DNA from: Deltaproteobacteria bacterium
GTDB taxonomy: Bacteria; Myxococcota_A; UBA9160; SZUA-336
DNA length: 64,000 nt
Assembly: GCA_016875225.1 (NCBI GenBank)
Contig: VGRW01000005.1
Location: forward strand, 2,936-66,935
Direction: 5' to 3'
The notes beneath the pieces are model-generated. The model had not been told where the DNA came from, did not search any database, and saw only the letters and a program-made list of their open reading frames with translations. Made by a program: the position numbers and the translations under genes. This document shows, one piece after another, positions 7,890 to 42,357 of this stretch. How positions within the stretch are numbered: position 1 is the first letter of the stretch; every line of letters begins with the position of its first letter.

Positions 7890-8555
7890 TCAGCCGCCCT
7901 CGATCGGGTCGGGCGACGGCTCGATCTCGAGCTTGATACGGATCGGCGTGGCGCTCCTATCCTTGCGCCAGACGTGCGGGGTGCCGAGCAGCACCGGGCT
8001 CTCGAGCGTCGCGGACTCGCGCAGGCCCGACAGGTCGATGCGATCGGTGACGACCTCGCGCAGGTTGCGGATCGCGCTCCTGGCGCCCGCGATCGCGAGG
8101 TCCTTGGGCTCGATGGCGACGCGCTTCAGCTTGAAGCCTGGCGGAGGCTCGCCAACGAGGTCGGCGCGGACGGGCACCAGCTTCGAGCCCACCGGCTCGA
8201 GCGCGTAGACCAGCGTCGACGGCGAGCTCGCGACGATGCGCGCGCCGCGCGGCAGCGCGATCTGCTCCTTGTTGACTGCCAGGCGCGCCTCGCCCGCCTT
8301 CGCGCCGTCGAACGACACCGAGTAGTGCGGCGCGTTCTTCGCCACCTGTCGCAGCGCCGCGCGGCTTCCCATCACACGCAGGTTGATCTCGTGCGCCGAT
8401 TCCTCGACGACCACCAGCTCCTCCGGGACGCCCTCGACCTGGATCGGAATGTCGAAGCTCTGCTCTGCGTCGGTGACGCCCTGGGCGGAGGCCCAGAGGA
8501 CGCATGCGATCAGGAGCGCCACGATCTTGTAGAGCAGATGGTCGAAGATCCACAT
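7890..8555 (-). CDS. cdaR: CdaR (YbbR-domain regulator of the c-di-AMP cyclase)
   Basis: N-terminal TM helix followed by YbbR-like repeats. It sits between cdaA and glmM, the conserved cdaA-cdaR-glmM arrangement. Confidence 0.8.
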   Translation of the reverse strand: MWIFDHLLYKIVALLIACVLWASAQGVTDAEQSFDIPIQVEGVPEELVVVEESAHEINLRVMGSRAALRQVAKNAPHYSVSFDGAKAGEARLAVNKEQIALPRGARIVASSPSTLVYALEPVGSKLVPVRADLVGEPPPGFKLKRVAIEPKDLAIAGARSAIRNLREVVTDRIDLSGLRESATLESPVLLGTPHVWRKDRSATPIRIKLEIEPSPDPIEGG

Positions 8556-8563
8556 CGCGACCC

Positions 8564-9415
8564 TCAGGTCTCCAGAGCGCGCGCCGGATCGGCGACCACG
8601 TCCTTCTCGGGCGGCGTCTCGACGCTCGGCTCGCCACCCGTGAGCTCGAGCAGCGCCTGGCGCAAGCGCGGCCCGTCCAGGTCGGCGCGGATCTCTCCGC
8701 CGGCGACCAGCGCGATCCTCCCGGACTCCTCCGATACGACCACGACGAGCGCGTCGGTCTCCTCGGTGAGCCCGACCGCCGCACGGTGGCGCGTGCCGAA
8801 CGCGCTCGGGAGGTCACCGCGCGTCGCGAGCGGCAGGATGCAGCCCGCGGAGAAGACGCGGCCCCGGCGCACCACGACCGCGCCGTCGTGGAGCGGGGAG
8901 TACGGCAGGAAGAGCGAGATCAGCAGGTCGCGCGAGAGCTCGGCGTCCAGCACCGTCCCGTCCTCGACGAACTCGTCGGTCTGCAGCTCGCGCTCGATCG
9001 CGATCAGCGCCCCGACGCGGCGCTGCGCGAGCGCCTGACAGGCGCGCACGATCTCCTCGATCGCGTGGGCCTGGTGCATTCGCGCCGGCGCGAACAGCCC
9101 GCGACCGACGCGCGTCAGCGCGCGGCGCACGTCCGCCTGGAAGATCACGATCAGGATCAGCAGGCCCGAGGACAGGAAGTTGTCGAGCAGGAACGAGACG
9201 GTGGCGAGCTCCAGCAGGTCCGAGAGCCGCCAGGCGAGGACCAGCACCAGCAGGCCGAGCGCCATCTGCGCGGCGCGCGTGCCCTTGATGCGCATCAGCA
9301 GCCAGTACACGCACCACGCGACCACGAGGATGTCGAGCGAATCGCGCAGCGGCTGGAAGTTCTCGGCAAAGCTCTCCCAGCGCTCGAGCAGCCAGGTGTA
9401 GACGAGCCAGGTCAA
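8564..9415 (-). CDS. cdaA: diadenylate cyclase CdaA (DisA_N/DAC domain, membrane-anchored)
   Basis: Three N-terminal TM helices, then DAC motifs HDGAVVV, GTRHRAAVGLTEETDALVVVVSEESGRIAL. 4-nt overlap with folP. Confidence 0.9.
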   Translation of the reverse strand: MTWLVYTWLLERWESFAENFQPLRDSLDILVVAWCVYWLLMRIKGTRAAQMALGLLVLVLAWRLSDLLELATVSFLLDNFLSSGLLILIVIFQADVRRALTRVGRGLFAPARMHQAHAIEEIVRACQALAQRRVGALIAIERELQTDEFVEDGTVLDAELSRDLLISLFLPYSPLHDGAVVVRRGRVFSAGCILPLATRGDLPSAFGTRHRAAVGLTEETDALVVVVSEESGRIALVAGGEIRADLDGPRLRQALLELTGGEPSVETPPEKDVVADPARALET

Positions 9416-10272
9416 TTGCGCTCCGGCGCGCGGGCGGCGCGGATCGCGCTCGCCACGTCGACGGCCTGTCGCGTCTCGGCCACGTCGTGGGCCCGCACGG
9501 CGCGCGCGCCGGCGAGCACCGCCGCCACGGCCGCGGCCAGCGACCCGTGCAGACGCCGCGACACGGGCGCCCCGGTGAGCGCGCCGATGAACTGCTTTCG
9601 CGAGGCGCCGACCAGAATCGGGTAGCCGGTGGCGACGATCTCGTCCAAGCGGCCGAGCAGCGGCAGGTTGTGTCGCAGCGGGTGCTTGCCGAAGCCGAGG
9701 CCGGGGTCGAGCCAGATGCGCTCACGCGCGACGCCGGCGCGCTGCGCCAGCGAAGCCTCCGCGAGCAGCTCGTCGCGCACCTCGCGGACCACGTCCCCGT
9801 ACACGGGATCGTGTTGCATGCTCGCGGGCTCGCCGCGAATGTGGTTCAGCACCAGGGTGGCGCCGTGCTCCGCGCAGACCGCGGCCAGCTCGGCATCGCG
9901 CAGCCCCACCACCGCATTCACGATCCGAGCGCCGGCCGCGAGCGCCGCGGCCGCCACGGCGGCGCGTCGGGTGTCGATCGAGATCGGCGTCTCGGTGCGC
10001 TTGGCGAGCCCCTCGATCACCGGAAGCACCCGCTCGCGCTCCTCGGCCTCGGAGACGGGCCGGGAGCCCGGCCGCGTCGACTCGCCGCCGACGTCGAGCC
10101 AATCCGCGCCCTCCGCGACGAGCGCAAGCCCGTGCTCGATTGCGGCCTCGGCGCAGGGAAACCGCCCACCGTCCGAGAACGAATCGGGCGTCACGTTCAC
10201 GATCCCCATCACGAGCACGCGCGGGGAAGCGCTCGGCGCGCCGGAGGGCGTTTCCGGCCGCGGCTCCTGCAT
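9412..10272 (-). CDS. folP: dihydropteroate synthase
   Basis: VLVMGIVNVTPDSFSDGG, DVGGESTRPG, LVGASRKQFIG. ATG at 10272 sits 4 nt after the ftsH stop. The annotated ORF start at 10389 would overlap ftsH. Confidence 0.9.
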   Translation of the reverse strand: MQEPRPETPSGAPSASPRVLVMGIVNVTPDSFSDGGRFPCAEAAIEHGLALVAEGADWLDVGGESTRPGSRPVSEAEERERVLPVIEGLAKRTETPISIDTRRAAVAAAALAAGARIVNAVVGLRDAELAAVCAEHGATLVLNHIRGEPASMQHDPVYGDVVREVRDELLAEASLAQRAGVARERIWLDPGLGFGKHPLRHNLPLLGRLDEIVATGYPILVGASRKQFIGALTGAPVSRRLHGSLAAAVAAVLAGARAVRAHDVAETRQAVDVASAIRAARAPERN

Positions 10273-12274: not shown

Positions 12275-13678
12275 TCACCTCGGGCTTGGAAGGCACACGG
12301 CGCGAAGCTCGCGCCCGCCCTCGCCGTCCCGCGTTGCCTCGCTGCGAAACAGACCTGGCACCCAGACGATCTCTCCATCCCGCTCGACGACCACCGCTCG
12401 CGCCCGCGCCTGTCTGGACCATCGGGCGCTGGCGAACGCCTCCTTGAGCGGACGCTCGCGACCCCTCGAGAGAATCCGATCGTCGGCGCTCGGACTCCGT
12501 GCGATCAGTGCGAGCTGCGGACGAGCGGGAAGGCGAAGCAGGCGACGCGGGGGATCCGGTGCGGTGCACGGGTGCCAGCTGAGACGGAGGCCTCGATCGG
12601 GGAATTCGAGCGAGCCCTCGAGCGGAACCTCGACGCGGAGCGGAGCGGGAGGACTCGGTCCGATCGACGGGCCGAGCCAGAGCCGCTGTCGATCTCGGAG
12701 CAGCTTGAAACCGCAGGGGAGCGAGAGCTCACGGCCGGTCTCGCCGCGCGCGACGAACGCGTCGATCCGCTCGACGTGCGCGCGGGAGAGCGCCGCGTCC
12801 AGCCCCTCGCGGGCGGCCAGCGCGTGCAGCGCGCGCCGTCTCTGGCCGACCTCGAGCGCGGCGAGCTTCGCAGCGTCGAGCCAGAGTCCGCCGTCGCCGC
12901 GGCTGGAGAGCTGCTCGAGGCGCTCGCCCAGCGCTCCGATCAGCGCCGCGTCCTGCTCCGCCGCCAGCTCCGCAAGCGACGCCAGCCGCTCGCTCGCGCC
13001 CGGGTGCATCGAGTCGAGCGCCGGCAGGATCTCCAGGCGCAGGCGATTCCTCGGGGTCGCCGGGTCCCCGTTGGTCGCATCCTCGCGGAACGAGAGCCCA
13101 CGCTCGGCGAGATAGCGGCGCAGCTCCGCACGTCGCGTCGCGAGCAGCGGGCGAAGCACGCGACCGCCATCCAGGCTCGGACGGATCGCTGCGAGCCCGC
13201 CGATCCCGGTTCCGCGCACCGCGCGGAGCAGCACGGTCTCGGCCTGATCGTCGAGGTGGTGCGCCGTCGTCAGGTGCGCGTGATGCCCGGCCACTCGGAT
13301 CCGCTCGAGCGCCTCGTAGCGGAGCGAGCGCGCGCGCGCCTCCGGGGACCGGCCATCGCGCGCCGACGCATCGACCCTCTCGAAGGCGAATGGCACCCCC
13401 AGCGATCGCGACAGCTCCGCCACGAACGCGAGGTCGGCGTCCGCCTCGCGCCCGCGCAGCCCGTGGTGGACGTGCGCCGCGGCAACGCGCTGGCCGATGC
13501 CGAGCAGCGCGTGCAGGAGCGCGACCGAGTCGGCCCCGCCCGAGACCGCCACGAGCACGCGGGCATCGCGCCGCACCCCGTGGGCGCGGAGAAATCGAGC
13601 CAGCTCCCGATGGATCGGATCCACGGCGACAGAGTACGGATCCGACCGTCGCCGCCAAGCTCCCGGGGCCCTAAACAA
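12275..13678 (-). CDS. tilS: tRNA(Ile)-lysidine synthetase
   Basis: PP-loop VLVAVSGGADSVALL. Conserved tilS-ftsH adjacency. 467 aa with C-terminal tRNA-binding extension. Confidence 0.9.
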   Translation of the reverse strand: MFRAPGAWRRRSDPYSVAVDPIHRELARFLRAHGVRRDARVLVAVSGGADSVALLHALLGIGQRVAAAHVHHGLRGREADADLAFVAELSRSLGVPFAFERVDASARDGRSPEARARSLRYEALERIRVAGHHAHLTTAHHLDDQAETVLLRAVRGTGIGGLAAIRPSLDGGRVLRPLLATRRAELRRYLAERGLSFREDATNGDPATPRNRLRLEILPALDSMHPGASERLASLAELAAEQDAALIGALGERLEQLSSRGDGGLWLDAAKLAALEVGQRRRALHALAAREGLDAALSRAHVERIDAFVARGETGRELSLPCGFKLLRDRQRLWLGPSIGPSPPAPLRVEVPLEGSLEFPDRGLRLSWHPCTAPDPPRRLLRLPARPQLALIARSPSADDRILSRGRERPLKEAFASARWSRQARARAVVVERDGEIVWVPGLFRSEATRDGEGGRELRAVCLPSPR

Positions 13679-13746
13679 GGTTCTGCCGCGGGCCGAAGAC
13701 TCCTCTGACGCGCCGTGCAGCGCGAGGCGGGGGGGAGCGGCTTCTC

Positions 13747-15840
13747 TTGACGGAGATCGCCTGGATCGAGCGCGTCCTGGGATCGCTGACCCGGCTTTCG
13801 GCCGGCTTCGACTGGACGGTCGGCGCGGCGCTCGCCGCCGCGGCGGCCCTGCTCGTCGTCCTGTTGGCCTGGCGGCTGCGCCGTGACAAGTCGAGCCGCG
13901 GAGGCGCTCCCGTCGACGCCGAGGTCGAGTACCGGAAGCTCGTCGAGCAAGGCGAGTTCGAGCGCGCGGCAGATCTGCTGGTCGAGCGACAGCAGGTCGC
14001 GCGGGCTCTGCCGCTCTACGAGCGCGCCGGCGCGAAGCCGAAGCTCGCTCGCGCGCTGCTTTTGGCGAAGCAGCCCGCGCGAGCCGCGCGCGTCTATTCC
14101 GAGCTCGGCCGGCACGCCGAGGCCGCGCATCACTTCCAGAGCGCGGGCCTCTGGCGCGAAGCCGGCGAGGCGCTGCTTCTCACGGGCGAGGAGCGCGAGG
14201 CCGCCGAGCTCTTCGAGCGCGCCGGCGATCTAGAACGGGCCGCGCAGCTGCACCGGCGGCTCGGCGATGCGGAGAGCGCCTCGCGGCTGTTTGCCCGCGC
14301 GGGCCTGGGCATCGCGGCCGCGGAGACGCTGCTCGAATCGCGCGGCCGCACACCGCGCTGGCTGCGCCGCGCCGCCGAGCTCTACGAGTCCGCCTCCGAA
14401 TGGGATCAGGCGGCGGGCTGCTACGCGGAGGCCGGCGATCCGCGCCAGGCGGCGGAGCTGTACGAGAAGGTCGGCCAGCAGGAGCAGGCGGCCCGCGCCT
14501 ACGAGCGCGCGGGCGTCCACGAGCGCGCCGCGAGCTGCTTCGAGCGGGCGGGCAAGCGATCGGAGGCGCGCGCCTGCTGGGAGCGCGCGGGCGACCGCCT
14601 GCGCGCGGCGGAGATGGCGCTCGAGGACGGCGATCACCTCGCCGCGGGCCGCGCATTCTACGAGCTGGGCTCCTACGAGCGCGCCGTCGACACACTTTCG
14701 CGTATCCCGTCGGGCGCGGCCGGAGCGCGCGACGCCTCGCGGCTGCTCGCCAGGATCTTCCTCGAGAAGGGCCTGATCGACCGCGCCAGGGAGAAGCTCG
14801 ATGCGTCGGCCGGGGGAAGCGGCTACACGAAGGACGATCTGGAGCTTCTGCTCCTGCTCGCGACCGCGTTGGAGCGGATCGGCGACGTGGCGGGTGCAGT
14901 CGGCACGCTCGAGCGCATCGCGCAGGTCGATTCGCGCTACGCCGACATCGAGGCTCGAATCGAACGGCTCGCCGAGCGCGCGCCCGGCAACGCCACGGCT
15001 CCGTCGCTCGCGACGTCGGCCGACGACCGCTACGAGCTTCGCGACGAGATCGGGCGCGGCGGGATGGGCATCGTCTATCTCGCGAGCGACCGGGAGCTCG
15101 GGCGCGCCGTCGCGATCAAATTCCTCCCCGGCGAGCTCGCCGCGAATCCGCAGGCCGTGCAGATGTTCCGCGCCGAGGCGCGCGCGGCGGCGGCGATGAA
15201 CCACCCCAACATCGTGCACATCTACGACGTCGCGGTGGTGAACGGCCAGCCGTGCATCGTGATGGAGTACGTGCAGGGTCGAACCGTGCGGGAGGTGATG
15301 CGGATCCGCGGCTCGAGCAGCCGCCAGCCGCTTCCGCCCCACCGCGTCGCGGAGATCGGGCGCGAGATCTGCCGCGCGCTCGGCTACGCGCACCGCTCCA
15401 ACGTGATCCACCGCGACGTGAAGCCGTCGAACATCCTGCTCACCGCCGACGGCAGCGCGAAGCTGATGGACTTCGGCATCAGCAAGGCGCTGGAGACCGG
15501 AAGCGAGGCGCTCACCGAGGCCCGCGGCACGCCGCAGTACATGCCGCCGGAGCAGATCCTCGGCCACGAGATCGACGGGCGCGCCGACCTCTACGCGCTC
15601 GGGATCTCGATGTTCGAGATGGCGACCGCCGAGCGCCCCTTCAGCGGCGAAGGCGTGGTCGACCAGCAGCTGCACGCGCCGCTTCCCGATCCGCGCCGGC
15701 TGCGCCCGGAGATCCCCGAGGGGCTGGTCGCGATCCTGAAGCGCGCCTGCCAGAAGGATCCGGACGGCCGCTTCGCGTCCGCGCACGAGATGGCCCAGGC
15801 GCTCGACGCGCTGCTGGAGAGCTCAGGGAAGCAGCGCTGA
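13747..15840 (+). CDS. membrane-anchored Hanks-type Ser/Thr protein kinase with N-terminal array of short alpha-helical (TPR-like) repeats
   Basis: TM helix AALAAAAALLVVLLAW with positive-inside RLRRDK. At least 8 tandem ~19-aa repeats of the form xAxELYERAGxxxxAA. C-terminal kinase domain with VAIKFL, HRDVKPSNILL, DFGIS, GTPQYMPPE. Confidence 0.85.
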   Translation: MTEIAWIERVLGSLTRLSAGFDWTVGAALAAAAALLVVLLAWRLRRDKSSRGGAPVDAEVEYRKLVEQGEFERAADLLVERQQVARALPLYERAGAKPKLARALLLAKQPARAARVYSELGRHAEAAHHFQSAGLWREAGEALLLTGEEREAAELFERAGDLERAAQLHRRLGDAESASRLFARAGLGIAAAETLLESRGRTPRWLRRAAELYESASEWDQAAGCYAEAGDPRQAAELYEKVGQQEQAARAYERAGVHERAASCFERAGKRSEARACWERAGDRLRAAEMALEDGDHLAAGRAFYELGSYERAVDTLSRIPSGAAGARDASRLLARIFLEKGLIDRAREKLDASAGGSGYTKDDLELLLLLATALERIGDVAGAVGTLERIAQVDSRYADIEARIERLAERAPGNATAPSLATSADDRYELRDEIGRGGMGIVYLASDRELGRAVAIKFLPGELAANPQAVQMFRAEARAAAAMNHPNIVHIYDVAVVNGQPCIVMEYVQGRTVREVMRIRGSSSRQPLPPHRVAEIGREICRALGYAHRSNVIHRDVKPSNILLTADGSAKLMDFGISKALETGSEALTEARGTPQYMPPEQILGHEIDGRADLYALGISMFEMATAERPFSGEGVVDQQLHAPLPDPRRLRPEIPEGLVAILKRACQKDPDGRFASAHEMAQALDALLESSGKQR

Positions 15841-18981: not shown

Positions 18982-21442
<2,461 letters not shown>

Positions 21443-31879: not shown

Positions 31880-32977
31880 GTGCGCCATCTCGAAATGCCG
31901 GAGCGCCTGCTTCTCGGTCCCGGACCGAGCAACGTGAGCGAAGAGGTGCGCGCGGCGCTCGCGCTTCCGCTCGTCGGCCATCTCGATCCCGCCTTTCTGG
32001 ACCTGCTCGACGAGGTGCAGCGACAGCTGCTCGCGCTGTTCCGCGCGCCCGACGGCGCGCTCGCGCTGCCGATCTCGGGAACCGGCAGCGCGGGAATGGA
32101 GGCGTGCCTGGTCAACCTGCTCGAGCCGGGCGACGGCCTGCTCGTCGCGGTGAACGGGGTCTTCGGCGAGCGGCTGGCCGCGATCGGCGAGCGCTGCGGC
32201 GCGCGGCTGCTGCGCGTCGAGGCGGAGATGGGCGAGATCGTTGCGCCAGAGCGGATCATCGCGGCGATCGAGGCGCACCGCCCCGAGGTCGTCGCGCTCG
32301 TCCACGCCGAGACGTCCACCGGAGTCGCGCAGCCCGTGAAGGAGGTTGCCGCTGCGGCGCGGGCGTCCGGTGCGCTAGTCGTCCTCGATTGCGTCACTTC
32401 GCTCTCCGGCATGGACGTTCGCATGGACGAATGGCAGATCGACGCCGCCTACTCGGCGACACAGAAGTGTCTCGCCTGTCCGCCCGGCCTGTCCCCGCTC
32501 GCGATCGGCCCGCGCGCGATCGCGCGCCTGGAGCGCAGACGGCGGCCGGTGCAGAGCTGGTATCTCGATCTCTCCCTGATCGGACGCTACTTCGGAGCGC
32601 GGCGCGTCTATCACCACACCGCGCCGATCTCGATGATCTTCGCGCTGCACGCCGCGCTGTCACGCGTGTTCGCGGAAGGGCTCGAGCAGCGCTTCGCGCG
32701 CCACGCCTCGGCGCACGCCCGTCTGGTCGCCGGGCTCGAGCCGATGGGTTTTCGGATGCTGGTTCCCGCTCGGTACCAGCTTCCGATGCTCTCCGCCGTG
32801 CTGCCGCCGTTCGACGACGAGTCGGCGGCGCGCCGGCGGCTTCTCGACGAACACGGCATCGAGATCGGGGGCGGGCTCGGTAAGCTCGCGGGAAGGATCT
32901 GGCGCATCGGCCTGATGGGCGAGAACGCGCGGCCGGAGGTCGTGGACCGACTGCTCGCCGCGCTGAGCCGGCTCTAG
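31880..32977 (+). CDS. class V aminotransferase (alanine-glyoxylate / serine-pyruvate aminotransferase family)
   Basis: GPGPSNV, PISGTGSAGMEA, YSATQKCLACPPGLSP (PLP Lys region). 365 aa. The start may be the M at 31895. Confidence 0.9.
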   Translation: MRHLEMPERLLLGPGPSNVSEEVRAALALPLVGHLDPAFLDLLDEVQRQLLALFRAPDGALALPISGTGSAGMEACLVNLLEPGDGLLVAVNGVFGERLAAIGERCGARLLRVEAEMGEIVAPERIIAAIEAHRPEVVALVHAETSTGVAQPVKEVAAAARASGALVVLDCVTSLSGMDVRMDEWQIDAAYSATQKCLACPPGLSPLAIGPRAIARLERRRRPVQSWYLDLSLIGRYFGARRVYHHTAPISMIFALHAALSRVFAEGLEQRFARHASAHARLVAGLEPMGFRMLVPARYQLPMLSAVLPPFDDESAARRRLLDEHGIEIGGGLGKLAGRIWRIGLMGENARPEVVDRLLAALSRL

Positions 32978-35004
32978 AAGGACGGGGCCAGCGTGATGCC
33001 CGCGTCGGAGCTGCGGTGCGGCGCCGCGGAGATGCCGTCCAGACCCACGGCCAGTCTCGCCTCGACAGGGAAGTAGCGCGAGATGCCGAGCCAGCGCGCG
33101 AAGGGAATCACGAGCGAGGCGCGCGGACCGAACGTTCCGACCTCGACGGCGACGCGGGCGTGGTCGAGGCTCGCGCGCGCGCCGATGCCAAGCTCGCCAT
33201 CCGCATCGCCGTTCGCGTAGAACATCGGGTCGTAATCGCGACGGATCTCGATGCACGGCGTCTCGGGCGGACAGGAAAGGCTCTCGCCTCCGAGCGCACG
33301 CTCGGCCAGGAAGCTCTCCTCGCGACGCTCGAGCTCGACCGCGCCAGCCATGTGCGAGCGTTGCCCGTCCACCAGCGCCGCTTGGAACGCGTCGGCTCCG
33401 GACGCGAGCTCGACGCGCCAGGGGCGCGCGACGAGCGACCGCCCTGCCCGGACCCGCGCGTCCATCCGCCGCAGATGGCCCAGGACCCCGCCCGCGCTCT
33501 CGCCGCGGGCCGAGAGCGTCGCGTCCTCGATGCCGCTCGCCAGACCCGCCAGAAGCGCGAGCGATCGGGCCGTCGGTATTCGCGAGCCCGCTTCGACCGG
33601 CCGACCCGATTCGGTGTCGAGCGAGATCAGGAATGCCGCGGCGTCGGAAGTAAGCCCGTCCAGCAGCTCCGGCGCCGCTCCTTCGAGCGCCGCGCGCGCG
33701 ACCACGACTCGCGTCGCAGCGAGGCGCGTCCACGCCGTCTTCGAGTGCGGCAGCACCAGGACTCCATCCTGGAACGCCGCGGCGCGCGGGCGGCTCCGCT
33801 CCTGGGCAGCGAGCGATTCGAGGCACGACGCCGCTTCGGCCGCCCGTTCGCCCTCGGGAGCGAGCTCGAGGTAGCGCCGCGCCGCGCTGCCAAGCGCGCG
33901 GCCCTCGGGCTGCCAGGAGCGCCAGGCCCGCGCCGGCGCATCGATCACCAGATTCGCCGGGCTCAGGGCCGCGCGCCAAGCCCGATACGACTCGCGCCAG
34001 GCTTCGAAGCCGTCGCGACTCAGCGCGAGCGCATCCGTCGCCGAGGGCACGGCCGTGGTGGAGAGCTCCTCTCCACCCACCCAACCGAGCGCGCGACGAG
34101 TCCGATACAGGTCGAGCTCGGTCTCGAACGCGGCATCCGGATCCACGCTCGGATCGACGAGCCACTCCGACGCGAGCTTCGCGGCCCGATCGCGTCCACG
34201 CGCGATGCGCCTCAGTTCGTCGAGGGCGCGATCGCGATCGCCGCGGAGATGGCGCGCCGCCGCGCGGGCCAGAGCGGCATCGCTGGAATCGATCGGTCCC
34301 AGCTCCTGCGCGCGCGCGAGGTCGTCGAGGAGCAGCGCGGTCCCGAGCTGAACCTCCCAGGCCGCGATCGAGAATTCCGAAGCAACCGCCTCCGACTCCG
34401 CCTGCTCGTCCAGCAGCGCGCGCCATTCCTGCTCGTCGATCTCGTCGAGCAGGCGGTCCGCGCGCGTCGAGCCGGGCTCGAGCGCGAGCGCGCGGTCGAC
34501 GGTTCGGCGCGTGCGCCGGAGATCACCGGCTCCGAACGCGCGTTCGGCCTCGGAGAGCAGCTCCGCGACGCGAGCCTCGCTCTCGCGCCGCTCCAGGCGC
34601 GTGAAGAGCGCGAGGCTCGCGGCGTCGAGCTCGCCGCTGCGAGCGCCGGGCCCGAGCAGAACCATCGCCTCGTCTTCCGCCAGGCTCCGGTCATCCCAGT
34701 CGCGCAAGCCACGCCCGACCCGCCCGACAGAGCGCAGCAGCTTGAGCGGCGAGACTTGTAGCGATGCGTGGATCCCGAGGTCGACGATCTCCGCGGAGAG
34801 ATCTGCGAATTTCCTGCGACGCTCGGCCGCGAGCAGCTCCGAGGCCTCGCTGGCGCGCGCCTGGTCGCTGCGAAGCTCGGGCGCGAGGAGCAGACTCGCC
34901 GCCTCCTCGCCGACATCGAGCTCGCCCGCGCGGCTGCTCGAGCCGGACGCGAGCGAGAGCACGAGCACGGCGATCGCCAGCGCGATGCGCGGATCAGTGC
35001 GCAT
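32974..35004 (-). CDS. secreted hypothetical protein, helical N-terminal region and C-terminal beta-rich segment ending in Phe (outer-membrane-protein-like)
   Basis: Signal peptide MRTDPRIALAIAVLVLSLASG. 676 aa. The C-terminal ~100 aa have alternating hydrophobic residues and a terminal F (ITLAPSF). Confidence 0.65.
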   Translation of the reverse strand: MRTDPRIALAIAVLVLSLASGSSSRAGELDVGEEAASLLLAPELRSDQARASEASELLAAERRRKFADLSAEIVDLGIHASLQVSPLKLLRSVGRVGRGLRDWDDRSLAEDEAMVLLGPGARSGELDAASLALFTRLERRESEARVAELLSEAERAFGAGDLRRTRRTVDRALALEPGSTRADRLLDEIDEQEWRALLDEQAESEAVASEFSIAAWEVQLGTALLLDDLARAQELGPIDSSDAALARAAARHLRGDRDRALDELRRIARGRDRAAKLASEWLVDPSVDPDAAFETELDLYRTRRALGWVGGEELSTTAVPSATDALALSRDGFEAWRESYRAWRAALSPANLVIDAPARAWRSWQPEGRALGSAARRYLELAPEGERAAEAASCLESLAAQERSRPRAAAFQDGVLVLPHSKTAWTRLAATRVVVARAALEGAAPELLDGLTSDAAAFLISLDTESGRPVEAGSRIPTARSLALLAGLASGIEDATLSARGESAGGVLGHLRRMDARVRAGRSLVARPWRVELASGADAFQAALVDGQRSHMAGAVELERREESFLAERALGGESLSCPPETPCIEIRRDYDPMFYANGDADGELGIGARASLDHARVAVEVGTFGPRASLVIPFARWLGISRYFPVEARLAVGLDGISAAPHRSSDAGITLAPSF

Positions 35005-35905
35005 GGCCCTTCACTTCCTCGTGGACGGCGAGCAGCGCCTCGATCCGCGTCCGCGCCTCGCGGCGGAGCGCGGGCTTGTGGTCCTCGCCCGCCAGCTCGT
35101 AGGCCGAGAACGCCTGATCGAGGAGCGAGTCGTATCGCTCGACGTCGAGATTCGCGATTCGCGCCCTCGCCCGCACCCGCTCGCGCCGCGCCGCATCCGC
35201 GTACAGATCGCCGAGTCGCAGCAGGTGCTTGCCGAAGAGCTTCGATTCGCGATGCGTCTCGATCAACGTCCGGCAGGCGCCGATCGCGTCGACGAGTCTG
35301 CCGGCGCGCTCCAGCCCGTCGACGCGCAGGACCTCCCAGCTCTCCGCCTCCTCGCGGGCCAACGGCTCCTGCGGAGTCCCCCGTACGTCGAGCGAGAGGC
35401 TTCGCCAGACCGCGAGTCGGCCTTCGACGAAGAGCAGCTCCTCCTCCGCGCTCGCGAAGGGTCGCTCGGGCGCGGCGGAAGCGGCGGCGAATTTCTCGAT
35501 GCTCTCCAGCCGCTCCGCGGCCGCATCGCCCAGCAGCGACCCGGACTCCTTCACGCGCGAATACGCGCGCGCCGCGTCCTGGTAGCGGCGCAGTCGTTCG
35601 AGCGCCTTGCCGCGGGCGAACTCGATCACGTAGTCGGCGTTCTGCCATTCGGATTCGGCGCGCGCTCGCTGCGCCGCGAGACGATCGAGCTTCCAGAGCG
35701 CGACGGAGTAGACGTCGTTGCCACCGGGTCCGACCGCTCGATCGAAGCGGTACGTGTCGTCTTGCATGTGCATCTTCAGCTGCGAGACGACCGCCGTCAG
35801 CGAGTCGTGCGCGCCGGCGGCGTCGCGTTCGCGCTCGCTCTGCGAAGCGCTCGCGCAGCCGACGAGCCAGCCGAGAACCGGGGCCACGAGCGCGATCTGT
35901 CGCAT
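34994..35905 (-). CDS. hypothetical lipoprotein
   Basis: ATG at 35905 gives MRQIALVAPVLGWLVGCASAS (lipobox LVGC). 303 aa, helical. 11-nt overlap with the downstream secreted-protein gene. Confidence 0.6.
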   Translation of the reverse strand: MRQIALVAPVLGWLVGCASASQSERERDAAGAHDSLTAVVSQLKMHMQDDTYRFDRAVGPGGNDVYSVALWKLDRLAAQRARAESEWQNADYVIEFARGKALERLRRYQDAARAYSRVKESGSLLGDAAAERLESIEKFAAASAAPERPFASAEEELLFVEGRLAVWRSLSLDVRGTPQEPLAREEAESWEVLRVDGLERAGRLVDAIGACRTLIETHRESKLFGKHLLRLGDLYADAARRERVRARARIANLDVERYDSLLDQAFSAYELAGEDHKPALRREARTRIEALLAVHEEVKGHAH

Positions 35906-36101
35906 GCGTCCCACGCCGTCACGAGGCTGCAGCTGTCGTGCCGGAGATCGGGAATCGGCAGCTCGCAGGCAGCTCCCGACGCAACCCGGCCCGGCTCGAT
36001 ACGGGAATCGCGCCTCGCCGACCGCTACTGCGAAGCGGCGTGCGCGGGGCGAAGCGGGGCGCACGTCCGAGTTGCGCGGATGCTGCGGATCCGCCGCCGG
36101 A

Positions 36102-36596
36102 TCAGCGCTCCAGCCAGTCCTCCGGCACGCCTGCAAGCGACGCCTCGACCCTCAGGTCTCGCAATCGCTGGCGCGAGGCTTCGAGCGACTGGCGATCGCG
36201 GCGCAGCTGAGCCCGGAGCTTCAGGACCTCCGGATCGGTCGCCTCGCCCCCGGCCGGGGAGTAGTTCCAATCCCCCGCCGTCGTCTTGCGCAGTCGCTGC
36301 TGACCGACCTCTACCTTCGACTCGAGATCGGTCACCTCGTAGTTCGCGCGCTCGAACGCGTCGCGCCATTCGGCGCGGTCACGGCCCCCGTAGCGGGGCT
36401 CCGCCGAAGGAGCGTCGCTCATGCTTCCCGGCGGCCGGAGCAGCCGCTCCAGATCGAGCGGCGGGGATGGCTCGTGCTGCGGCGCCGGGGACACGTCCTC
36501 GGGACCGATGTCGCCCCCGGGCGGTGGCGCCGATTGCGCCCACCCGTAGCCAGGGCAGATCAGCAGGAGCAGCAGGCAGAGTCGGGCGGAGTGCAT
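36102..36596 (-). CDS. small secreted hypothetical protein (Pro-rich N-terminal region, coiled-coil C-terminus)
   Basis: MHSARLCLLLLLICPGYGWAQS signal peptide. 164 aa. This is the only non-junk part of the 893-aa antisense ORF. Confidence 0.5.
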   Translation of the reverse strand: MHSARLCLLLLLICPGYGWAQSAPPPGGDIGPEDVSPAPQHEPSPPLDLERLLRPPGSMSDAPSAEPRYGGRDRAEWRDAFERANYEVTDLESKVEVGQQRLRKTTAGDWNYSPAGGEATDPEVLKLRAQLRRDRQSLEASRQRLRDLRVEASLAGVPEDWLER

Positions 36597-36713
36597 CCTC
36601 GGCCGAGTATAGGACAGGGCCGCGGCAGCTCCCATCAAGCGCGGATCAGGCGCGGCCGAAGCAGTGGGAGACGCGCGCGACGGCGGCTCGACGCGCGAGG
36701 GCGGGACCCCAAA

Positions 36714-37853
36714 ATGGATCGAGAGCGACTCCATCGACTGCTGCGGCTGGGCTTCGAAAAGGGCGCATCCGACATCCACTTCCAGGTCGGATACCTGCCG
36801 CTCTATCGCTTCAACGGCGAGCTGGTCGAGCTGAAGTACAAGATCCTGACGATGGCCGACACCGAGGCCATCGCGCGCCTGCTCATGGAGTTCGATCCGT
36901 CCAAGACGCTCGACGGCGTGTCCGAGATCGACATGGCCTACGAGATCGCCGGCGAGGGACGCTTCCGCGTCAACATCTCGCGCGAGCGCAAGGCCTACAA
37001 CATCGTGCTTCGCGTCGTGCCGCTCTCGATCAAGTCCTTCGAGGAGCTGAACCTGCCCTCGGTGCTGCGGACGATCGCGTCGGTGCAGCGCGGGCTGGTC
37101 CTCGTGACGGGCGCGACTGGAATGGGCAAGTCGACCACGCTCGCGACGATGCTCCAGGAGATCAACCGGGCGCTGAAGTGCAAGATCGTGACGATCGAGG
37201 ATCCGGTCGAGTTCATCTTCACGCACGAGCATTCGATCATCACCCAGCGCGAGATCGGCACCGACACGCCGAGCTTTCCCGCCGCGCTTCGAGCCGCGCT
37301 GCGACAGGATCCGGACGTGATCATGGTGGGCGAGATCCGCGATGCGGAGACCGTCGACACGGCGCTGAAGGCGGCCGAGACCGGGCATGCGGTGTTCTCC
37401 TCGATCCACACCAACGACGTCGTGACCACGCTGCGGCGGGTGGTGTCGTTCTTCCCGGTCGAGGAGCACCAGCAGGTCCGGGAGCGCCTGGCGGAGAACC
37501 TGCAGTCGATCGTCTCGCTGCGTCTGCTCCCGAACAAGAAGGGCACCGGACGCGTGCCCGCCGTCGAGGTCCTGCGCACGACCCGCTCGATCCGCGAGTG
37601 CATCCGCGATCCGAACCGCGCGGTGGAGATCCGCGATCACATCGAGAAGGGGCATTCGGACATGGAGATGCAGACCTTCGATCAGCACCTCCTCGAGCTC
37701 TACCAGGCGAACAAGATCAAGCTCGAGACCGCTCGCGACGCCGCGTCGAATCCGCGCGACTTCGCGACCAAGCTCGCGCTCGAGGGCGACTCGTCCTACA
37801 CGCAGGAGAGCCCGGGATCGCTCTCCGGCGGAAGCGACGAAGGTCGCTTCTAG
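36714..37853 (+). CDS. pilT: type IV pilus retraction ATPase PilT (twitching motility)
   Basis: Walker A GATGMGKSTT, IVTIEDPVEF, His box AVFSSIHTND, typical PilT C-terminus. 379 aa. Confidence 0.92.
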   Translation: MDRERLHRLLRLGFEKGASDIHFQVGYLPLYRFNGELVELKYKILTMADTEAIARLLMEFDPSKTLDGVSEIDMAYEIAGEGRFRVNISRERKAYNIVLRVVPLSIKSFEELNLPSVLRTIASVQRGLVLVTGATGMGKSTTLATMLQEINRALKCKIVTIEDPVEFIFTHEHSIITQREIGTDTPSFPAALRAALRQDPDVIMVGEIRDAETVDTALKAAETGHAVFSSIHTNDVVTTLRRVVSFFPVEEHQQVRERLAENLQSIVSLRLLPNKKGTGRVPAVEVLRTTRSIRECIRDPNRAVEIRDHIEKGHSDMEMQTFDQHLLELYQANKIKLETARDAASNPRDFATKLALEGDSSYTQESPGSLSGGSDEGRF

Positions 37854-37859
37854 ACCGCC

Positions 37860-39089
37860 ATGGAGATCCTCGCGCTCTACACCTCGCCCGATACGCTTCC
37901 CTCGGCGCTCGCCGCTGGCGCGCGCCATCTCGCCGCCGCGCTGCAGGGCTTCGCGCTGGTCTATCGCGCGACGCACGTCGCGGCCGAGCCCGACGGCTGG
38001 GCCGGCTTCACCTGTGCGAAGGACGCGCAGGTCGCGGGCGAGGAGCTCGACGACTTCGTCCGCCAGACGCTGGCATCCGAACGGCCGCTGCGAACCGACT
38101 CGCCCGAGGGCAGCCCGCGCATCTGGAGCCGAGCGGCGGGCGGGATCTACGGCTTTCCGATTCGCCACAACGGGCAGGTGCGCGGCGTTGCGCTGCTCGG
38201 CTGTCCGGGGCCGTGGCCGCGCGTGCAGAACGCGGGGATCGAGTCGATCCTTCGGCAGATCGCGCTGGTCCTGGATCACCATGCGGTGTCGAGCAGCCCC
38301 GCGGTCGAAGCCGAGCCGTCCGACGAGCTGCTGCGGCTCTCCGAGCAGCTGCTCGCCCAGGACATCGAGCTGATCAAGCGCGAGGAGCGGCTCACGCTCG
38401 TCGAGCGCCTGAAGGCGGATCTGATCGAGACGATGTCCTACGAGCTCCGCCAGCCGCTGAACAGCATGATCGAGCGCATGATCTCGGTGCTCGCGAACGA
38501 GCACGAGGCGCTCTCGGTATCGGGACGCGATTCGCTGCGCGGCGTGCTCGCCGACGGCAACACGCTGATGCAGATGCTCCAGAACATCCTCGACCTGTGG
38601 CGTCTGAAACAGGGCGAGGTTTCGATCGACATCCAGGACGTGAACCTGGCCGAGGTGATCGAAGAGGCGATCTTCAACGTTCGCGACACGCTGCAGCCCG
38701 ACGTCGTCTTCGAGAAGCGGATCCCGTCGGCCCTGCCGAAGATCCGCACGGACCTCGGCAAGCTGAATCAGATCCTCTTCCACCTGCTCGACAATGCCGC
38801 GAAGTTCACGCGGCGCGGGCGGATCGCGCTCGAGCTCGGGCTAGAGGACGGGCAGCTGGTCTGCAGCGTGACGGACACGGGAATCGGGATCGCCCCGGAC
38901 GATCAGGAGCAGATCCTCGACGAGTTCTACCGGGTCGATTCGTCGCCCGACAGCCGGCACCGCGGCGCCGGCCTGGGTCTCACGCTCGCGCGCGGATTGA
39001 TCGAGAAGCTCGGCGGGTCGCTCTCGCTCCAGAGCGAGATCGGTCAGGGCTCGCGCTTCAGCTTCGCGTTGCCCGTCACCATCTGCTAG
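37860..39089 (+). CDS. cytoplasmic GAF-like / HisKA / HATPase_c histidine-kinase-like protein whose H-box histidine is replaced by Tyr
   Basis: The dimerisation/phosphoacceptor box reads IETMSYELRQPLNSM where the consensus is SHELRTPL. N, G1, G2 boxes are present (LLDNAAKFT, DTGIGI, GAGLGL). No TM segment. Starts 7 nt after pilT. Confidence 0.85.
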   Translation: MEILALYTSPDTLPSALAAGARHLAAALQGFALVYRATHVAAEPDGWAGFTCAKDAQVAGEELDDFVRQTLASERPLRTDSPEGSPRIWSRAAGGIYGFPIRHNGQVRGVALLGCPGPWPRVQNAGIESILRQIALVLDHHAVSSSPAVEAEPSDELLRLSEQLLAQDIELIKREERLTLVERLKADLIETMSYELRQPLNSMIERMISVLANEHEALSVSGRDSLRGVLADGNTLMQMLQNILDLWRLKQGEVSIDIQDVNLAEVIEEAIFNVRDTLQPDVVFEKRIPSALPKIRTDLGKLNQILFHLLDNAAKFTRRGRIALELGLEDGQLVCSVTDTGIGIAPDDQEQILDEFYRVDSSPDSRHRGAGLGLTLARGLIEKLGGSLSLQSEIGQGSRFSFALPVTIC

Positions 39090-39099
39090 CCGCAGACGG

Positions 39100-39309
39100 T
39101 CAGTGCTGGGCGGCGTCGCCCTCGAGGTCGGGTGCGACGTAGCCGGCCGCGACCTCGCGCAGCGCGTTCACGACTGCCTTGTTCTCGGTCGTCTTCACCA
39201 GCCCGCGAGCTCCCCGCATGATCTGCTTGGCCCGGACAGAGACCATGACGACCAGGGCGAATCGGTTTCCCGCCCGCTCGGTGCAGTCCTCGATCGTGAT
39301 TCTGGCCAA
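39100..39309 (-). CDS. rpoZ: DNA-directed RNA polymerase subunit omega
   Basis: 69 aa: MARITIEDCTERAGNRFALVVMVSVRAKQIMRG. Confidence 0.9.
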   Translation of the reverse strand: MARITIEDCTERAGNRFALVVMVSVRAKQIMRGARGLVKTTENKAVVNALREVAAGYVAPDLEGDAAQH

Positions 39310-39361
39310 GGGGAACTCCTTCTCGTTGCGCGGCCGATCCTAGGATCTGGTCTTCGCCGGC

Positions 39362-39403
39362 GCAAGAAAGAAGAAGCCCCCGTCGCTTCGCAGCGACGGG
39401 GGC
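39362..39403 (-). terminator. putative intrinsic terminator after the 40-aa basic micro-ORF
   Basis: Minus-strand RNA: GCCCCCGUCGC-UGCGAA-GCGACGGGGGC (11-bp GC stem) followed by UUCUUCUUUCUU. Confidence 0.5.
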
Positions 39404-39429
39404 CTTCTATGGAATCAGAATGCGAGGCC

Positions 39430-39552
39430 TCAGACGGCCTTCTTGCGGCGGCGTGTGGCCTTCTTACGGCCAGCCTTCTTCTTTCCGCCCTTCTTCGCAC
39501 CCTTCTTCCGCCGCGTTGCCTTCTTGCTCGCGGCTTTCTTCCGAGCTGCCAT
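39430..39552 (-). CDS. 40-aa extremely basic Lys/Arg/Ala-rich micro-protein (histone-H1-like / nucleoid- or ribosome-associated candidate)
   Basis: ATG preceded by GGGGGTGAGAG (RBS-like). Translation MAARKKAASKKATRRKKGAKKGGKKKAGRKKATRRRKKAV. Hairpin terminator immediately downstream. Below the 60-aa cutoff of the ORF track. Confidence 0.45.
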   Translation of the reverse strand: MAARKKAASKKATRRKKGAKKGGKKKAGRKKATRRRKKAV

Positions 39553-39799
39553 TTGCTCTCACCCCCATTTGCGTTTTTGTTCACCGTGCTCGCGTTGCGA
39601 CCGCTCCGCTTGCGCTTCGGGGAGCAATTCGTGCACGACCGAGAGGACCCTGATTTGCGATTCCTCTCGCGTCACGTATCGGACTCGATCTTCCGAACTT
39701 GACGCGAGCACCGTTGTTTCACGTCTGGAAACGCGCGGTTCCCGTTCTCGGTTGCGCACACAGTAAGCATTGAGCGGCGAAAGTGTCAACGGAAGCGCC

Positions 39800-39836
39800 A
39801 AAAAAAACGCACCGATGTGTTCCATCGGTGCGTTTG
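39800..39836 (-). terminator. strong rho-independent terminator (acts on minus strand; A8 on plus / U8 on minus)
   Basis: Plus strand AAAAAAAA-ACGCACCGATG-TGTTC-CATCGGTGCGT-TT, a perfect 11-bp stem. On the minus strand it is followed by 8 U, directly downstream of the bS22-like ORF. Confidence 0.75.
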
Positions 39837-39870: not shown

Positions 39871-39966
39871 TCAGCGCTTGTTGCGCTTGTGTCTCTGCTT
39901 CGCGCGAAGCTTCTTGTACTTGTGCTTGCGCATCTTCTTGCGCCGCTTCTTGATCACGCTGCCCAC
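39871..39966 (-). CDS. bS22-like ribosomal micro-protein candidate (31 aa)
   Basis: GTG-initiated ORF translating (M)[30 protein letters not shown]. Near-identical in pattern to mycobacterial bS22 ([21 protein letters not shown]...). GGAGG lies ~12 nt upstream, and a strong terminator follows. Confidence 0.55.
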   Translation of the reverse strand: [31 protein letters not shown]

Positions 39967-40620: not shown

Positions 40621-42357
40621 CTACGCGCGAAGAGGCAGGCGCACCACGAACTCGACCGTTCCGGCGAAGGGAAGCTCCGCCCAGGCGCGGCCGCCGTGCA
40701 GCTCGGCGATCGCGCGGACCAGGTTCAGCCCCAGCCCGACACCGCCATACTTCCTGGAGTACGAGCCATCGCGTTGCACGAAGCGCGCGAAGATCCGTTC
40801 GAGATCCTGCGGGCCGAGCTCGTGGGACGGATTGCGCACGCGAAGTTCGACGGCTTGGTCGTCGTGACCGGTGGAGACCCTCACCCGCGCGCCTCGCTGG
40901 CTGAACTTCAGCGAGTTCTCCAGCAGGTTCAGGACCACCTGCTTGATCCGGTCCGGGTCGAGCTCGGCGAGCGGCAAGGCGGGGTCGAGCGCCAGATCGA
41001 CCGCGAAGCCCGCCTCGTCGAGTCTCGGCTTCAGGATCTGAAGGCATTCGTGGACGATCGCTCCGAGCGCGGCCGGCCGTCGCGCGAGCGCGACACCGCC
41101 TGCCTCGATGTTCGAGAGCTCGAGCAGGCCGCGGATCAGCTCGGTCATGCGGGAAGCCTCGCGCTCGACCAGGCCGAGAAACTCCGCACGCTGGACGGTG
41201 GAGAGCCGCGCTCCCCCGGCGATCTCGGCCGCGACGTCCCTGCGAAGCAGCGTCGCGAATCCCTTGATGCTGGTGAGCGGCGTCGTGAGCTCGTGGCTGA
41301 CGTTGGCGAGGAACTCGGATTTCATCCGATCGGAGTCCACGATCCGCTCGTTCTGCAGTCGCAGCTGCTCGTTGCGCTCGCCGAGCTCTCGCTCCAGACG
41401 CAGCCGCTCCGTCACGTCGCGCGCGATGCACACCAGCGAGTTCGAGCTCGCGGAGACGCGAGCCGAGACCTCGATCGTCGCCGATCCGCTGCGCGTGCGC
41501 GCCTCGAGGCGGATGCCGCTCAGCGCGCCGACCTCGAAGAGCCGCGGCACCAGCTGCCGGATCACGTCCCACGAGGCATCGTCGAGCAGCCCCTGCACGG
41601 ACTGTCCGCGCAGCTCGGCGAGGCTCATCGAGGTGAAGCGCAGCGCGGCGCGGTTCGCGTCCAGAACCATCAGCTGGCGATCGAAGACCAGGATGATGTC
41701 CGGCACTTCGTCCATGAAACGGCGGACGCGCTGCAGGTCGTGCAGGTCGGCGACCCCGTCGCTTGGCTCCGTACCTCCTCGCTCGACCGCTTCGCGTCCT
41801 TCGAGCTCGGCTTGCAGCAGGCTCGCCTCGCGCAGCGCACGCTCGTGTCGAACGTCGCGACAGGGAATCCAGCCCTTCACTTCGAAACAGCAGCGACTGC
41901 CGCCGTCGCTGCTGCACTCGACCTGAGAGACCACCACCGGCTCCTCGCCGGAGCAGCTCGACAGGAGCGAGCGCATGGCGCCGAGACGGAACTCGCACTC
42001 GCTGACCTCGGTCGGGAAGCCGGGCTCGTTGGTCCAGAACAGTCGCGCGTCGCGCTCTCCAGAGCGGACCTCCACGCTCGAGTGCCGGTCGAGGAACCGC
42101 GCCCAGATCGGGAGTTCGGCCAGGAGGACGCTGGGATCCTGAGCGAGCTCGGCGAACGCCCGCAGCCAGGGCTCGGCGACCTCCCAGACGCGCATGCCTG
42201 CGGTGAACGCGTTGTCGCGCTCCGCGAAGATCTCGAGCAGCTCCGCGCGCGGGATCCAGAGCGCCCGAACCGCGCGCTCTTCGACGCTTGGCGCGCCCGT
42301 GACCCCGCCCTTGATCGCGACCTGGAACAGCGCACTGCGACGAGCGCGCTCGCTCAC
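40621..42357 (-). CDS. cytoplasmic sensor histidine kinase with N-terminal Cys-rich V4R-like domain and PAS domain
   Basis: N-terminal EVSECEFRLGAMRSLLSSCSGEEPVVVSQVECSSDGGSRCCFEVKGW (4-vinyl-reductase-like). PAS region. Intact H box ANVSHELTTPLTSIKG. HATPase N/G boxes LLENSLKFS, GGVGLGLNLV. Confidence 0.9.
   Translation of the reverse strand: MSERARRSALFQVAIKGGVTGAPSVEERAVRALWIPRAELLEIFAERDNAFTAGMRVWEVAEPWLRAFAELAQDPSVLLAELPIWARFLDRHSSVEVRSGERDARLFWTNEPGFPTEVSECEFRLGAMRSLLSSCSGEEPVVVSQVECSSDGGSRCCFEVKGWIPCRDVRHERALREASLLQAELEGREAVERGGTEPSDGVADLHDLQRVRRFMDEVPDIILVFDRQLMVLDANRAALRFTSMSLAELRGQSVQGLLDDASWDVIRQLVPRLFEVGALSGIRLEARTRSGSATIEVSARVSASSNSLVCIARDVTERLRLERELGERNEQLRLQNERIVDSDRMKSEFLANVSHELTTPLTSIKGFATLLRRDVAAEIAGGARLSTVQRAEFLGLVEREASRMTELIRGLLELSNIEAGGVALARRPAALGAIVHECLQILKPRLDEAGFAVDLALDPALPLAELDPDRIKQVVLNLLENSLKFSQRGARVRVSTGHDDQAVELRVRNPSHELGPQDLERIFARFVQRDGSYSRKYGGVGLGLNLVRAIAELHGGRAWAELPFAGTVEFVVRLPLRA

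Follow-up and report, generated by a model that had tools for sequence, protein, structure and literature searches.

The stretch of DNA analysed here (the window) comprises 64,000 nucleotides of contig VGRW01000005.1, from a Deltaproteobacteria bacterium assembly (GCA_016875225.1), and has a G+C content of ∼70%. Within it, a gene encoding a PilT-family ATPase is followed on the same strand by a gene for a histidine-kinase-like protein that carries tyrosine in place of the phospho-accepting histidine, and rpoZ converges on the pair from downstream. The analysis described below suggests that the second gene encodes a soluble histidine pseudokinase, a member of a narrow protein family that is encoded together with PilT. 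The features of the locus, with the basis for each assignment in brackets where applicable, are:

36714..37853 (+), PilT-family hexameric ATPase gene, 379 amino acids (TIGR01420, Pfam T2SSE, PDB matches, motifs)
37110-37136 (+), PilT Walker A
37185-37214 (+), PilT Asp box
37308-37343 (+), PilT Walker B
37383-37415 (+), PilT His box
37587-37610 (+), PilT SIRECIRD, similar to AIRNLIRE
37779..37850 (+), PilT C-terminal tail: variable acidic/Ser-rich linker, then [DE]xRF (DEGRF, 37836-37850)
37851-37853 (+), pilT TAG stop
37854..37859 (+), spacer of 6 nt (ACCGCC) from the pilT stop to the next ATG (sequence; no terminator between the genes)
37860..39089 (+), histidine-kinase-like (putative pseudokinase) gene, 409 amino acids, soluble, GAF-DHp-CA (Pfam, AlphaFold, Foldseek, ratio of non-synonymous to synonymous substitution rates, dN/dS)
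37860..38294 (+), GAF-fold domain, residues 1-145 (structural similarity; no Pfam match)
38319..38609 (+), DHp (HisKA-type) helical hairpin, residues 154-250, with helices 154-214 and 220-250 (AlphaFold secondary structure, HisKA)
38439-38441 (+), TAC codon, Tyr194 at the phospho-acceptor His position (alignments to HK853 and DivL)
38451-38453 (+), CAG codon, Gln198 at the HisKA phosphatase T/N position (His+4)
38622..39086 (+), CA (HATPase_c) domain, residues 255-409 (HATPase_c 91.8 bits, E 4.8e-26)
38781-38810 (+), N box HLLDNAAKFT (N312)
38874-38891 (+), G1 box, D339-T-G-I-G343
38925-38939 (+), F box, F356
38964-38981 (+), G2 box, G369-A-G-L-G-L374
39100..39309 (-), rpoZ (RNA polymerase omega), convergent boundary marker (Pfam RNA_pol_Rpb6, E 3.1e-15)

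The initial annotation had placed the kinase-like gene 7 nt after pilT. The spacer itself is 6 nt long, and the figure of 7 holds for the number of positions from the last base of the stop codon to the ATG at 37860. The stop codon of rpoZ lies 10 nt from that of the kinase-like gene.

The upstream open reading frame (ORF) matched the NCBIfam family TIGR01420 (pilT_fam) with 413.1 bits, against a cutoff of 319.1, and Pfam T2SSE with 157.7 bits (E 4.2e-46). Its closest solved relatives are the PilT proteins of Thermus, Aquifex, Geobacter and Pseudomonas (top E 2.7e-95). With a TIGR01420 score above the cutoff and with Walker A, Asp box, Walker B and His box all present, the protein belongs to the PilT/PilU family. 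Following the sequence '...LALEGD', the PilT polypeptide continues for ∼20-25 variable acidic or Ser-rich residues and then terminates in [DE]xRF-COOH; the alignments to PilT proteins in the PDB end short of this acidic tail. The final two residues are RF in 27 of 28 related loci, and in 117 of the 120 database homologues listed (at least 69% identity). The [DE]xRF tail looks like a short docking motif. The gene is a stand-alone pilT within a housekeeping region: part of the ORFs of the 64-kb window were scanned for protein families, and no other pilus genes were found among these or in the flanks of related loci.

The protein encoded by the downstream gene contains DLIETMSYELRQPLNSM. An AlphaFold model was built from 42 family members and reached a pLDDT (predicted local distance difference test score) of 85.5. 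It comprises an α/β domain (residues 1-145), a helical hairpin and an α/β sandwich (residues 259-405). When the model was compared with the PDB using Foldseek, the structures retrieved were those of HK853, DivL, RetS and GacS, together with bacteriophytochrome kinase modules, with an E-value of 4.9e-20 for the match to canonical sensor kinases such as HK853; the best PDB sequence match of the full-length protein, again to this class, has an E-value of 3.5e-31. The GAF-like N-terminus proposed in the initial annotation is borne out at the level of fold, in that this domain structurally resembles solved GAF domains; at the sequence level, none of the 42 family members gave a Pfam GAF match at E≤0.01. 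The GAF fold begins at residue 1 and no membrane segment is predicted. The HisKA profile scored 22.1 bits over residues 185-252, which is under the Pfam gathering score of 26.9; a HisKA match at E≤0.01 was nevertheless obtained for 39/42 members, and the homology to HisKA is clear. The CA domain is complete, as had been claimed, with a strong HATPase_c match and intact N, G1, F and G2 boxes. Compared with a canonical class I HisKA kinase, the protein has the HATPase_c boxes and lacks both the acceptor His and a HisKA score at the gathering level. In the databases, family members are labelled 'signal transduction histidine kinase', 'sensor histidine kinase' or 'HAMP domain-containing histidine kinase'.

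Alignment by phmmer placed Y194 opposite the phospho-acceptor His260 of HK853, within 'SHELRTPL'. For the DHp region alone, the best PDB match was DivL (4q20), where Y194 falls on Tyr550 of 'SYELRTPL'. The two alignments agree, which confirms that the His-to-Tyr replacement is at the true phospho-acceptor position. The H box of the window protein reads SYELRQPL. The sequence E/DxxT/N is the recognised HisKA phosphatase motif, as cited in PMC12963549; in the window protein E195 is present and position 198 is Gln, so the motif is incomplete.

In order to place this replacement in its family, homologues were collected from 5.8 billion clustered proteins. At least 120 were found, and the 120 listed are all at 62% identity or more and nearly all of ∼409 residues. 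A first alignment contained 119 sequences and a second 138, after the addition of 19 proteins taken from genome loci, among them a distant clade at ∼45% identity. Changes per site were counted by parsimony on a neighbour-joining tree of the 138 sequences and are minimum values. In the first alignment the acceptor column reads Y77, H15, C7, F5, N5, I2, W2, V2, S1, Q1, T1, R1, and in the second Y77, H19, R10, C9, F6, N6, I2, W2, Q2, V2, S1, T1, L1. Site 194 has thus been occupied by 13 different residues, through at least 24 changes. The initial annotation had asked whether orthologues share the exchange of His for Tyr: the loss of a fixed His is indeed shared, whereas Tyr itself is not conserved.

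The residues around the acceptor behave quite differently. E195 is conserved in 98% of the 119 sequences, L196 in 99%, and P199 and L200 in 100%; across the 138 sequences E195, L196, R197, P199 and L200 show 0-4 changes each. The one further exception is the His+4 position, site 198, which has changed 24 times, equal to site 194, and which in the close family reads A39, T33, Q17, S13, M11; Thr is kept here in many members, and in the distant clade entirely. Sites 194 and 198 are the fastest-changing of an otherwise nearly invariant H box, the median number of changes being 8 for DHp helix 1 and 11 for the whole protein. Together with site 202, these variable sites form a single i/i+4 stripe of DHp helix 1, a face that bears the catalytic residues in real kinases. 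Outside the 194/198/202 stripe, helix 1 is conserved, including the His+7 and His+11 positions (6 and 3 changes), which we take to correspond to the response-regulator specificity sites known from work on EnvZ and HK853. In the CA domain, N312, D339, G341, G343, F356 and G369-L374 show zero changes over the 138 sequences.

The codons used at site 194 are TAC, CAC/CAT, TGC, CTC, AAC, CAG, TTC and CGC/CGG/CGA, which are real one-step neighbours. Tyr (TAC) is fixed across the window's own subclade, at 72% identity or more, and in the distant clade Arg is maintained through synonymous change. A canonical PAS-domain kinase encoded nearby (the PAS-kinase, described below) served as a control: at 49-84% identity it keeps 'SHEL.TPL', with His in 15/15 and Thr in 15/15 loci. 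On the evidence of these alignments, the conserved feature at the acceptor site is a loss of constraint, and not Tyr. His215 was considered as an alternative acceptor. Lying 21 residues away from position 194, it occupies the hairpin tip of the DHp domain, and although invariant in the close clade it is Asn/Asp in 7 members, mostly of the distant clade; as a family-wide acceptor it was rejected.

The initial annotation had left room for a read error, with CAC or CAT as the true codon in place of TAC. The same TAC is present at site 194 in 13 independent assemblies of Tyr-bearing relatives, and a read error is therefore excluded. Comparison of the window gene with its closest genome relatives (L003 and L004) gave dN/dS values of 0.084-0.087 for the whole gene, and of 0.094-0.109 for the GAF, 0.053-0.057 for the DHp and 0.059-0.066 for the CA domain. 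Since dN/dS is low in each, all three domains are maintained, and the DHp domain is the most constrained even without its His. Moreover, 86 columns are invariant among the 42 diverse members and the reading frame is intact in >100 database clusters. A kinase fold, a replaced acceptor His and a gene under purifying selection (dN/dS ∼0.085) are features expected of a histidine pseudokinase, the functional class of DivL and PsmA, and the protein has all three.

Next, the genomic context of the family was examined. Genomes were scanned at one genome per species (185,579 species), and 33 distinct genome loci encode a relative. All of them come from metagenome-assembled genomes, which with few exceptions bear the label Myxococcota, Deltaproteobacteria or Myxococcales. 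PilT was sought by tblastn in each locus and flanks of ±8-10 kb were inspected. The order pilT, kinase-like gene, convergent rpoZ runs across these loci, with a PilT homologue (68-96% identity) directly upstream on the same strand in 33/33 and rpoZ directly downstream in 32/33; the remaining locus, L015, ends inside the kinase-like gene. Of the 32 loci in which the gap between the two genes was measured, 29 have a gap of -1 to 30 nt (usually 5-30 nt), the exceptions being L016 (176 nt) and L032 and L033, where the start calls are ambiguous. A look-up starting from PilT gave the same picture: two PilT homologues, picked solely for their long contigs (L036 and L037), each have a gene for an HATPase_c protein of 410 or 417 amino acids after a gap of 10 nt, with rpoZ and a TPR gene coming next. 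A terminator scan found no + strand terminator between pilT and the kinase-like gene, and no sigma-70-like promoter was found in 36000-39800; the terminator-like signals located within pilT were either weak or in the wrong orientation. With both genes on the same strand, no intervening terminator and short gaps in 29/32 plus 2 further loci, the co-transcription that the initial annotation called near-certain is very likely.

In one locus, L024 (4848-7228 of CAVPHD010000009.1), the alignments of pilT and of the kinase-like gene are both broken into several pieces that are shifted against one another; to judge from the sequence, these shifts are most simply explained as indel errors of the assembly and not as real pseudogenes. 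The breadth of the family was also probed with a profile of the GAF domain, searched against 1.84 billion representatives at 50% identity. This retrieved ∼8-10 true clusters, mostly fragments, together with one frameshifted pilT read-through (protein P0169). The few true clusters mean that the family is narrow. The other matches were WD40-repeat proteins, and were set aside as chance matches over a short stretch.

The remaining genes around the pair are:

36102-36596 (-), divergent gene, ∼164 amino acids, signal-peptide-like N-terminus by eye (no Pfam family)
34994-35905 (-), divergent gene, 303 amino acids, lipobox LVGC by eye (no Pfam family)
32974-35004 (-), divergent gene, 676 amino acids, signal-peptide-like N-terminus by eye (no Pfam family)
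40621-42357 (-), orphan canonical kinase (the PAS-kinase): weak V4R-like N-terminus, PAS, HisKA, HATPase_c

The three divergent genes upstream of pilT had been proposed to belong to the same surface module. Only in the close clade do the two larger ones have syntenic homologues, and in the distant clade MotA/MotB-like or MFS genes replace the trio upstream of pilT, whereas pilT and the kinase-like gene are kept; the trio is not an obligate part of the module. The PAS-kinase lies 1.5 kb from the kinase-like gene, on the opposite strand, with rpoZ and a TPR gene in between; there is no response regulator next to it. It is syntenic in many clade-A loci and absent from the flanks of L011, L023 and L025 and of all distant-clade loci. 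Its distribution indicates that it is not an obligate part of the pilT unit. The scanned genes of the window, like the flanks of ±8-10 kb inspected around related loci, contained no gene for a receiver-domain protein or response regulator. The scanned ORFs of the window are housekeeping or unrelated genes, among them those for aspartokinase, pdxJ, glmM, cdaA with a YbbR protein, folP, ftsH and thiC, as well as carAB, pyrB, pyrC, lepA, lepB, rml genes, recG, homoserine dehydrogenase, a TPR Ser/Thr kinase and a molybdopterin oxidoreductase.

Several other features of the window were recorded. Just upstream of rpoZ, a hairpin of 14 pairs plus a T-run at 39374-39405 (-) is the strongest terminator-like element of the region; it follows a 40-codon Lys/Ala-rich ORF, MAARKKAASKKATRRKKGAKKGGKKKAGRKKATRRRKKAV, at 39430-39552 (-), which has KKA-type repeats. 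A 31-codon ORF with a GTG start, MGSVIKKRRKKMRKHKYKKLRAKQRHKRNKR, at 39871-39966 (-), retains 79-92% nucleotide identity even in the distant clade; its product may resemble the actinobacterial small ribosomal protein bS22. A stop-to-stop ORF of 721 codons at 13675-15840 (+) encodes TPR repeats that are followed by a C-terminally fused Ser/Thr protein kinase domain. The sole Rfam match in the whole window is a tRNA at 18982-19055 (+) (66.4 bits); it stands at the start of the long frame containing thiC, so that the true thiC start must be further downstream. Finally, a string of genes at 6498-9721 (-), adjoining folP and ftsH, encodes CdaA (DAC domain, c-di-AMP synthase), a YbbR-domain protein and GlmM (phosphoglucosamine-mutase-type). 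The organism probably makes c-di-AMP, to judge from these genes, and the presence of cdaA makes c-di-AMP one candidate ligand class for the GAF domain.

The protein was compared with known systems of similar make-up. The pseudokinase DivL of Caulobacter crescentus carries Tyr550, keeps its H, N, G1, F and G2 boxes, is without kinase and phosphatase activity, and binds DivK∼P via its docking face (PMC4211667). Like the window protein, DivL has a complete CA domain and a HisKA-type DHp domain whose acceptor His is replaced by Tyr (SYELRTPL in DivL, SYELRQPL here). DivL is, however, a 769-residue, multi-PAS, alphaproteobacterial protein whose Tyr is conserved, with one Ala exception, and which works with DivK and CckA, whereas the window protein has 409 residues, a single GAF fold and a freely varying acceptor, and is found in Myxococcota, encoded with PilT. 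An identity as a DivL orthologue was rejected on the basis of the architecture, the origin from Myxococcota metagenome-assembled genomes and the non-conserved Tyr. In PsmA of Streptomyces the acceptor varies among orthologues (E, D, Q, V, Y) and the residues just after it are highly conserved; autokinase activity is absent, and PsmA exerts its function by binding to DivIVA, a cytoskeletal/polarity protein (PMC12963549). The present family shares with PsmA a variable acceptor followed by a conserved H box. PsmA differs in having PAS domains and a receiver, in having wholly lost E/DxxT/N (XSLRGP) and in binding DivIVA; the window protein retains the Glu (with Thr also retained in many family members) and contains a GAF domain but lacks a receiver, and its gene is linked to that of a pilus ATPase.

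Canonical HisKA kinases, such as Thermotoga HK853 and the PAS-kinase of the window, share the fold and all CA motifs with the window protein, which differs from them in lacking the acceptor His, in its sub-threshold HisKA match and in having no adjacent response regulator. In PilS-PilR, the two-component system found in type IV pilus clusters, PilS is anchored in the membrane, has the acceptor His, is paired with the regulator PilR and is encoded next to pilA. The PilS-PilR system resembles the locus in that a gene of the histidine kinase type stands near one or more pilus genes. An identity of the PilS type was rejected, the window protein being a soluble GAF protein without acceptor His and without an adjacent regulator. 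As for the motor, Myxococcota carry several PilT paralogues, the roles of which are partly understood (PMC13584747). The Myxococcus xanthus proteins PilT, PilU/MXAN_1995, MXAN_0415, MXAN_6705 and MXAN_6706 are, like the window PilT, of the PilT/PilU family with the four motor motifs. The subfamily to which the window PilT belongs is marked by the acidic [DE]xRF tail and by the putative pseudokinase downstream.

Taken together, the best overall explanation of these data is that the kinase-like protein is a soluble histidine pseudokinase, of a narrow family so far found only in uncultured Myxococcota, which is encoded together with PilT; we put the probability of this reading at about 0.6. Its first component, that the protein is a pseudokinase standing outside phosphorelay, appears likely from the pattern of conservation. 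Such a protein would run no His-Asp phosphorelay and would instead serve as a dimeric protein–protein switch, the state of which may be set by a GAF ligand and/or by nucleotide in the CA domain and may be read out via the conserved DHp docking surface. Regulation of PilT by the kinase-like protein, which the initial annotation had suggested as dedicated control of type IV pilus dynamics, is inferred from the conserved linkage. The likeliest client would be the co-translated PilT-family ATPase, perhaps contacted via its acidic [DE]xRF tail, and PilT would be the most economical choice; even so, this assignment is a tentative one, with somewhat less than even odds. Alternatively, a response-regulator-like protein encoded elsewhere might dock on the DHp domain, in the way that DivK∼P docks on DivL. 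More specifically still, and doubtfully, a GAF-DHp-CA dimer might bind the PilT hexamer, for example by the [DE]xRF tail, and switch retraction according to ATP and/or a small-molecule ligand.

A number of observations weigh against a PilT-linked pseudokinase. The strict invariance of the ATP pocket suggests that nucleotide binding, or perhaps catalysis on another substrate, is still selected. His is carried by 19/138 members, and these might be active kinases. The scanned parts of the 64-kb window contain neither a response regulator nor another pilus gene, and no PilT-kinase fusion protein occurs among the 120 listed homologues of either protein. In addition, rpoZ is as syntenic as pilT, so that adjacency alone is weak functional evidence.

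The first alternative is that the protein is an active protein kinase whose intact GHKL ATP site serves another acceptor. This could be Tyr194 itself, as had reportedly been claimed at first for DivL, or a Ser, Thr, Tyr or His residue in a partner protein (PilT, for example, or a second kinase); SpoIIAB and RsbW, which are GHKL Ser kinases, provide the comparison here. The ATP-binding residues are invariant in a family that diverges to ∼45% identity, and Tyr is fixed in the subclade of the window, both of which would fit such an activity. In many members, however, the acceptor is Phe, Cys, Arg, Asn, Ile, Val or Leu, and Tyr phosphorylation is therefore not the function of the family. His215, at the hairpin tip, fares no better as a substitute, with Asn/Asp in the distant clade, and DivL keeps the same boxes and yet binds ATP weakly and is inactive (PMC4211667). 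An active kinase is accordingly considered unlikely.

Alternatively, the protein could act within two-component signalling as a phosphatase devoted to one response regulator whose gene lies elsewhere, a function for which the acceptor His would be dispensable. The initial annotation had allowed for a phosphatase role, and conservation of E195 (∼98%), of the DHp docking face and of the CA domain, together with the Thr found at His+4 in many members and in the whole distant clade, is in keeping with one. The case is weakened by the His+4 residue itself: the window protein has Gln here, and family-wide the site holds A, T, Q, S or M; with 24 changes the site does not behave like a selected catalytic residue. 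There is also no response regulator nearby among the window genes scanned or in related flanks, and DivL, with the same box conservation, is without phosphatase activity (PMC4211667). A phosphatase is no more probable than an active kinase.

A third alternative is that the protein modulates a genuine histidine kinase by heterodimerisation or docking, in the manner of RetS-GacS or DivL-CckA, the link to pilT being merely transcriptional. The PAS-kinase would be one such target; this canonical orphan is syntenic in many clade-A loci, and the kinase cores of RetS and GacS are among the closest sequence and structure matches. Nevertheless, the PAS-kinase is missing from the flanks of L011, L023 and L025 and from all distant-clade loci, where the pair is retained, and where present in the window it is on the opposite strand, beyond rpoZ and the TPR gene. 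Modulation of another kinase is judged to be less probable again. Finally, an artefact or a decaying gene, as might be suspected from the sub-threshold HisKA score alone, can be ruled out for practical purposes by the TAC codon in 13 assemblies, the dN/dS of ∼0.085, the 86 invariant columns and the intact frame in more than 100 clusters.

Histidine pseudokinases are already known as a kind, and His-to-Tyr replacement has its precedent in DivL. What is new here is the family, its strict pairing with a [DE]xRF-tailed PilT subfamily, and the combination of relaxed catalytic sites with a preserved ATP pocket; a literature search found no papers on PilT with a pseudokinase, or on a kinase gene downstream of pilT. 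As a label, 'sensor histidine kinase' misdescribes most of the family, and a variable acceptor and a variable His+4 within a frozen H box, together with a frozen ATP pocket, provide a signature by which similar proteins may be found. The protein would be a candidate for the control of one of the several Myxococcota PilT paralogues (PMC13584747). If a GAF-DHp-CA dimer did switch the PilT hexamer, the kinase core would have been repurposed as a nucleotide-dependent clamp, and the protein would be the first pseudokinase known to control an ATPase of the secretion superfamily. Characterised bacterial histidine pseudokinases are few, and two of them, DivL and PsmA, work on the machinery of cell polarity; with a third, independent family encoded behind a PilT-type motor, this polarity theme would be widened to include pilus dynamics.

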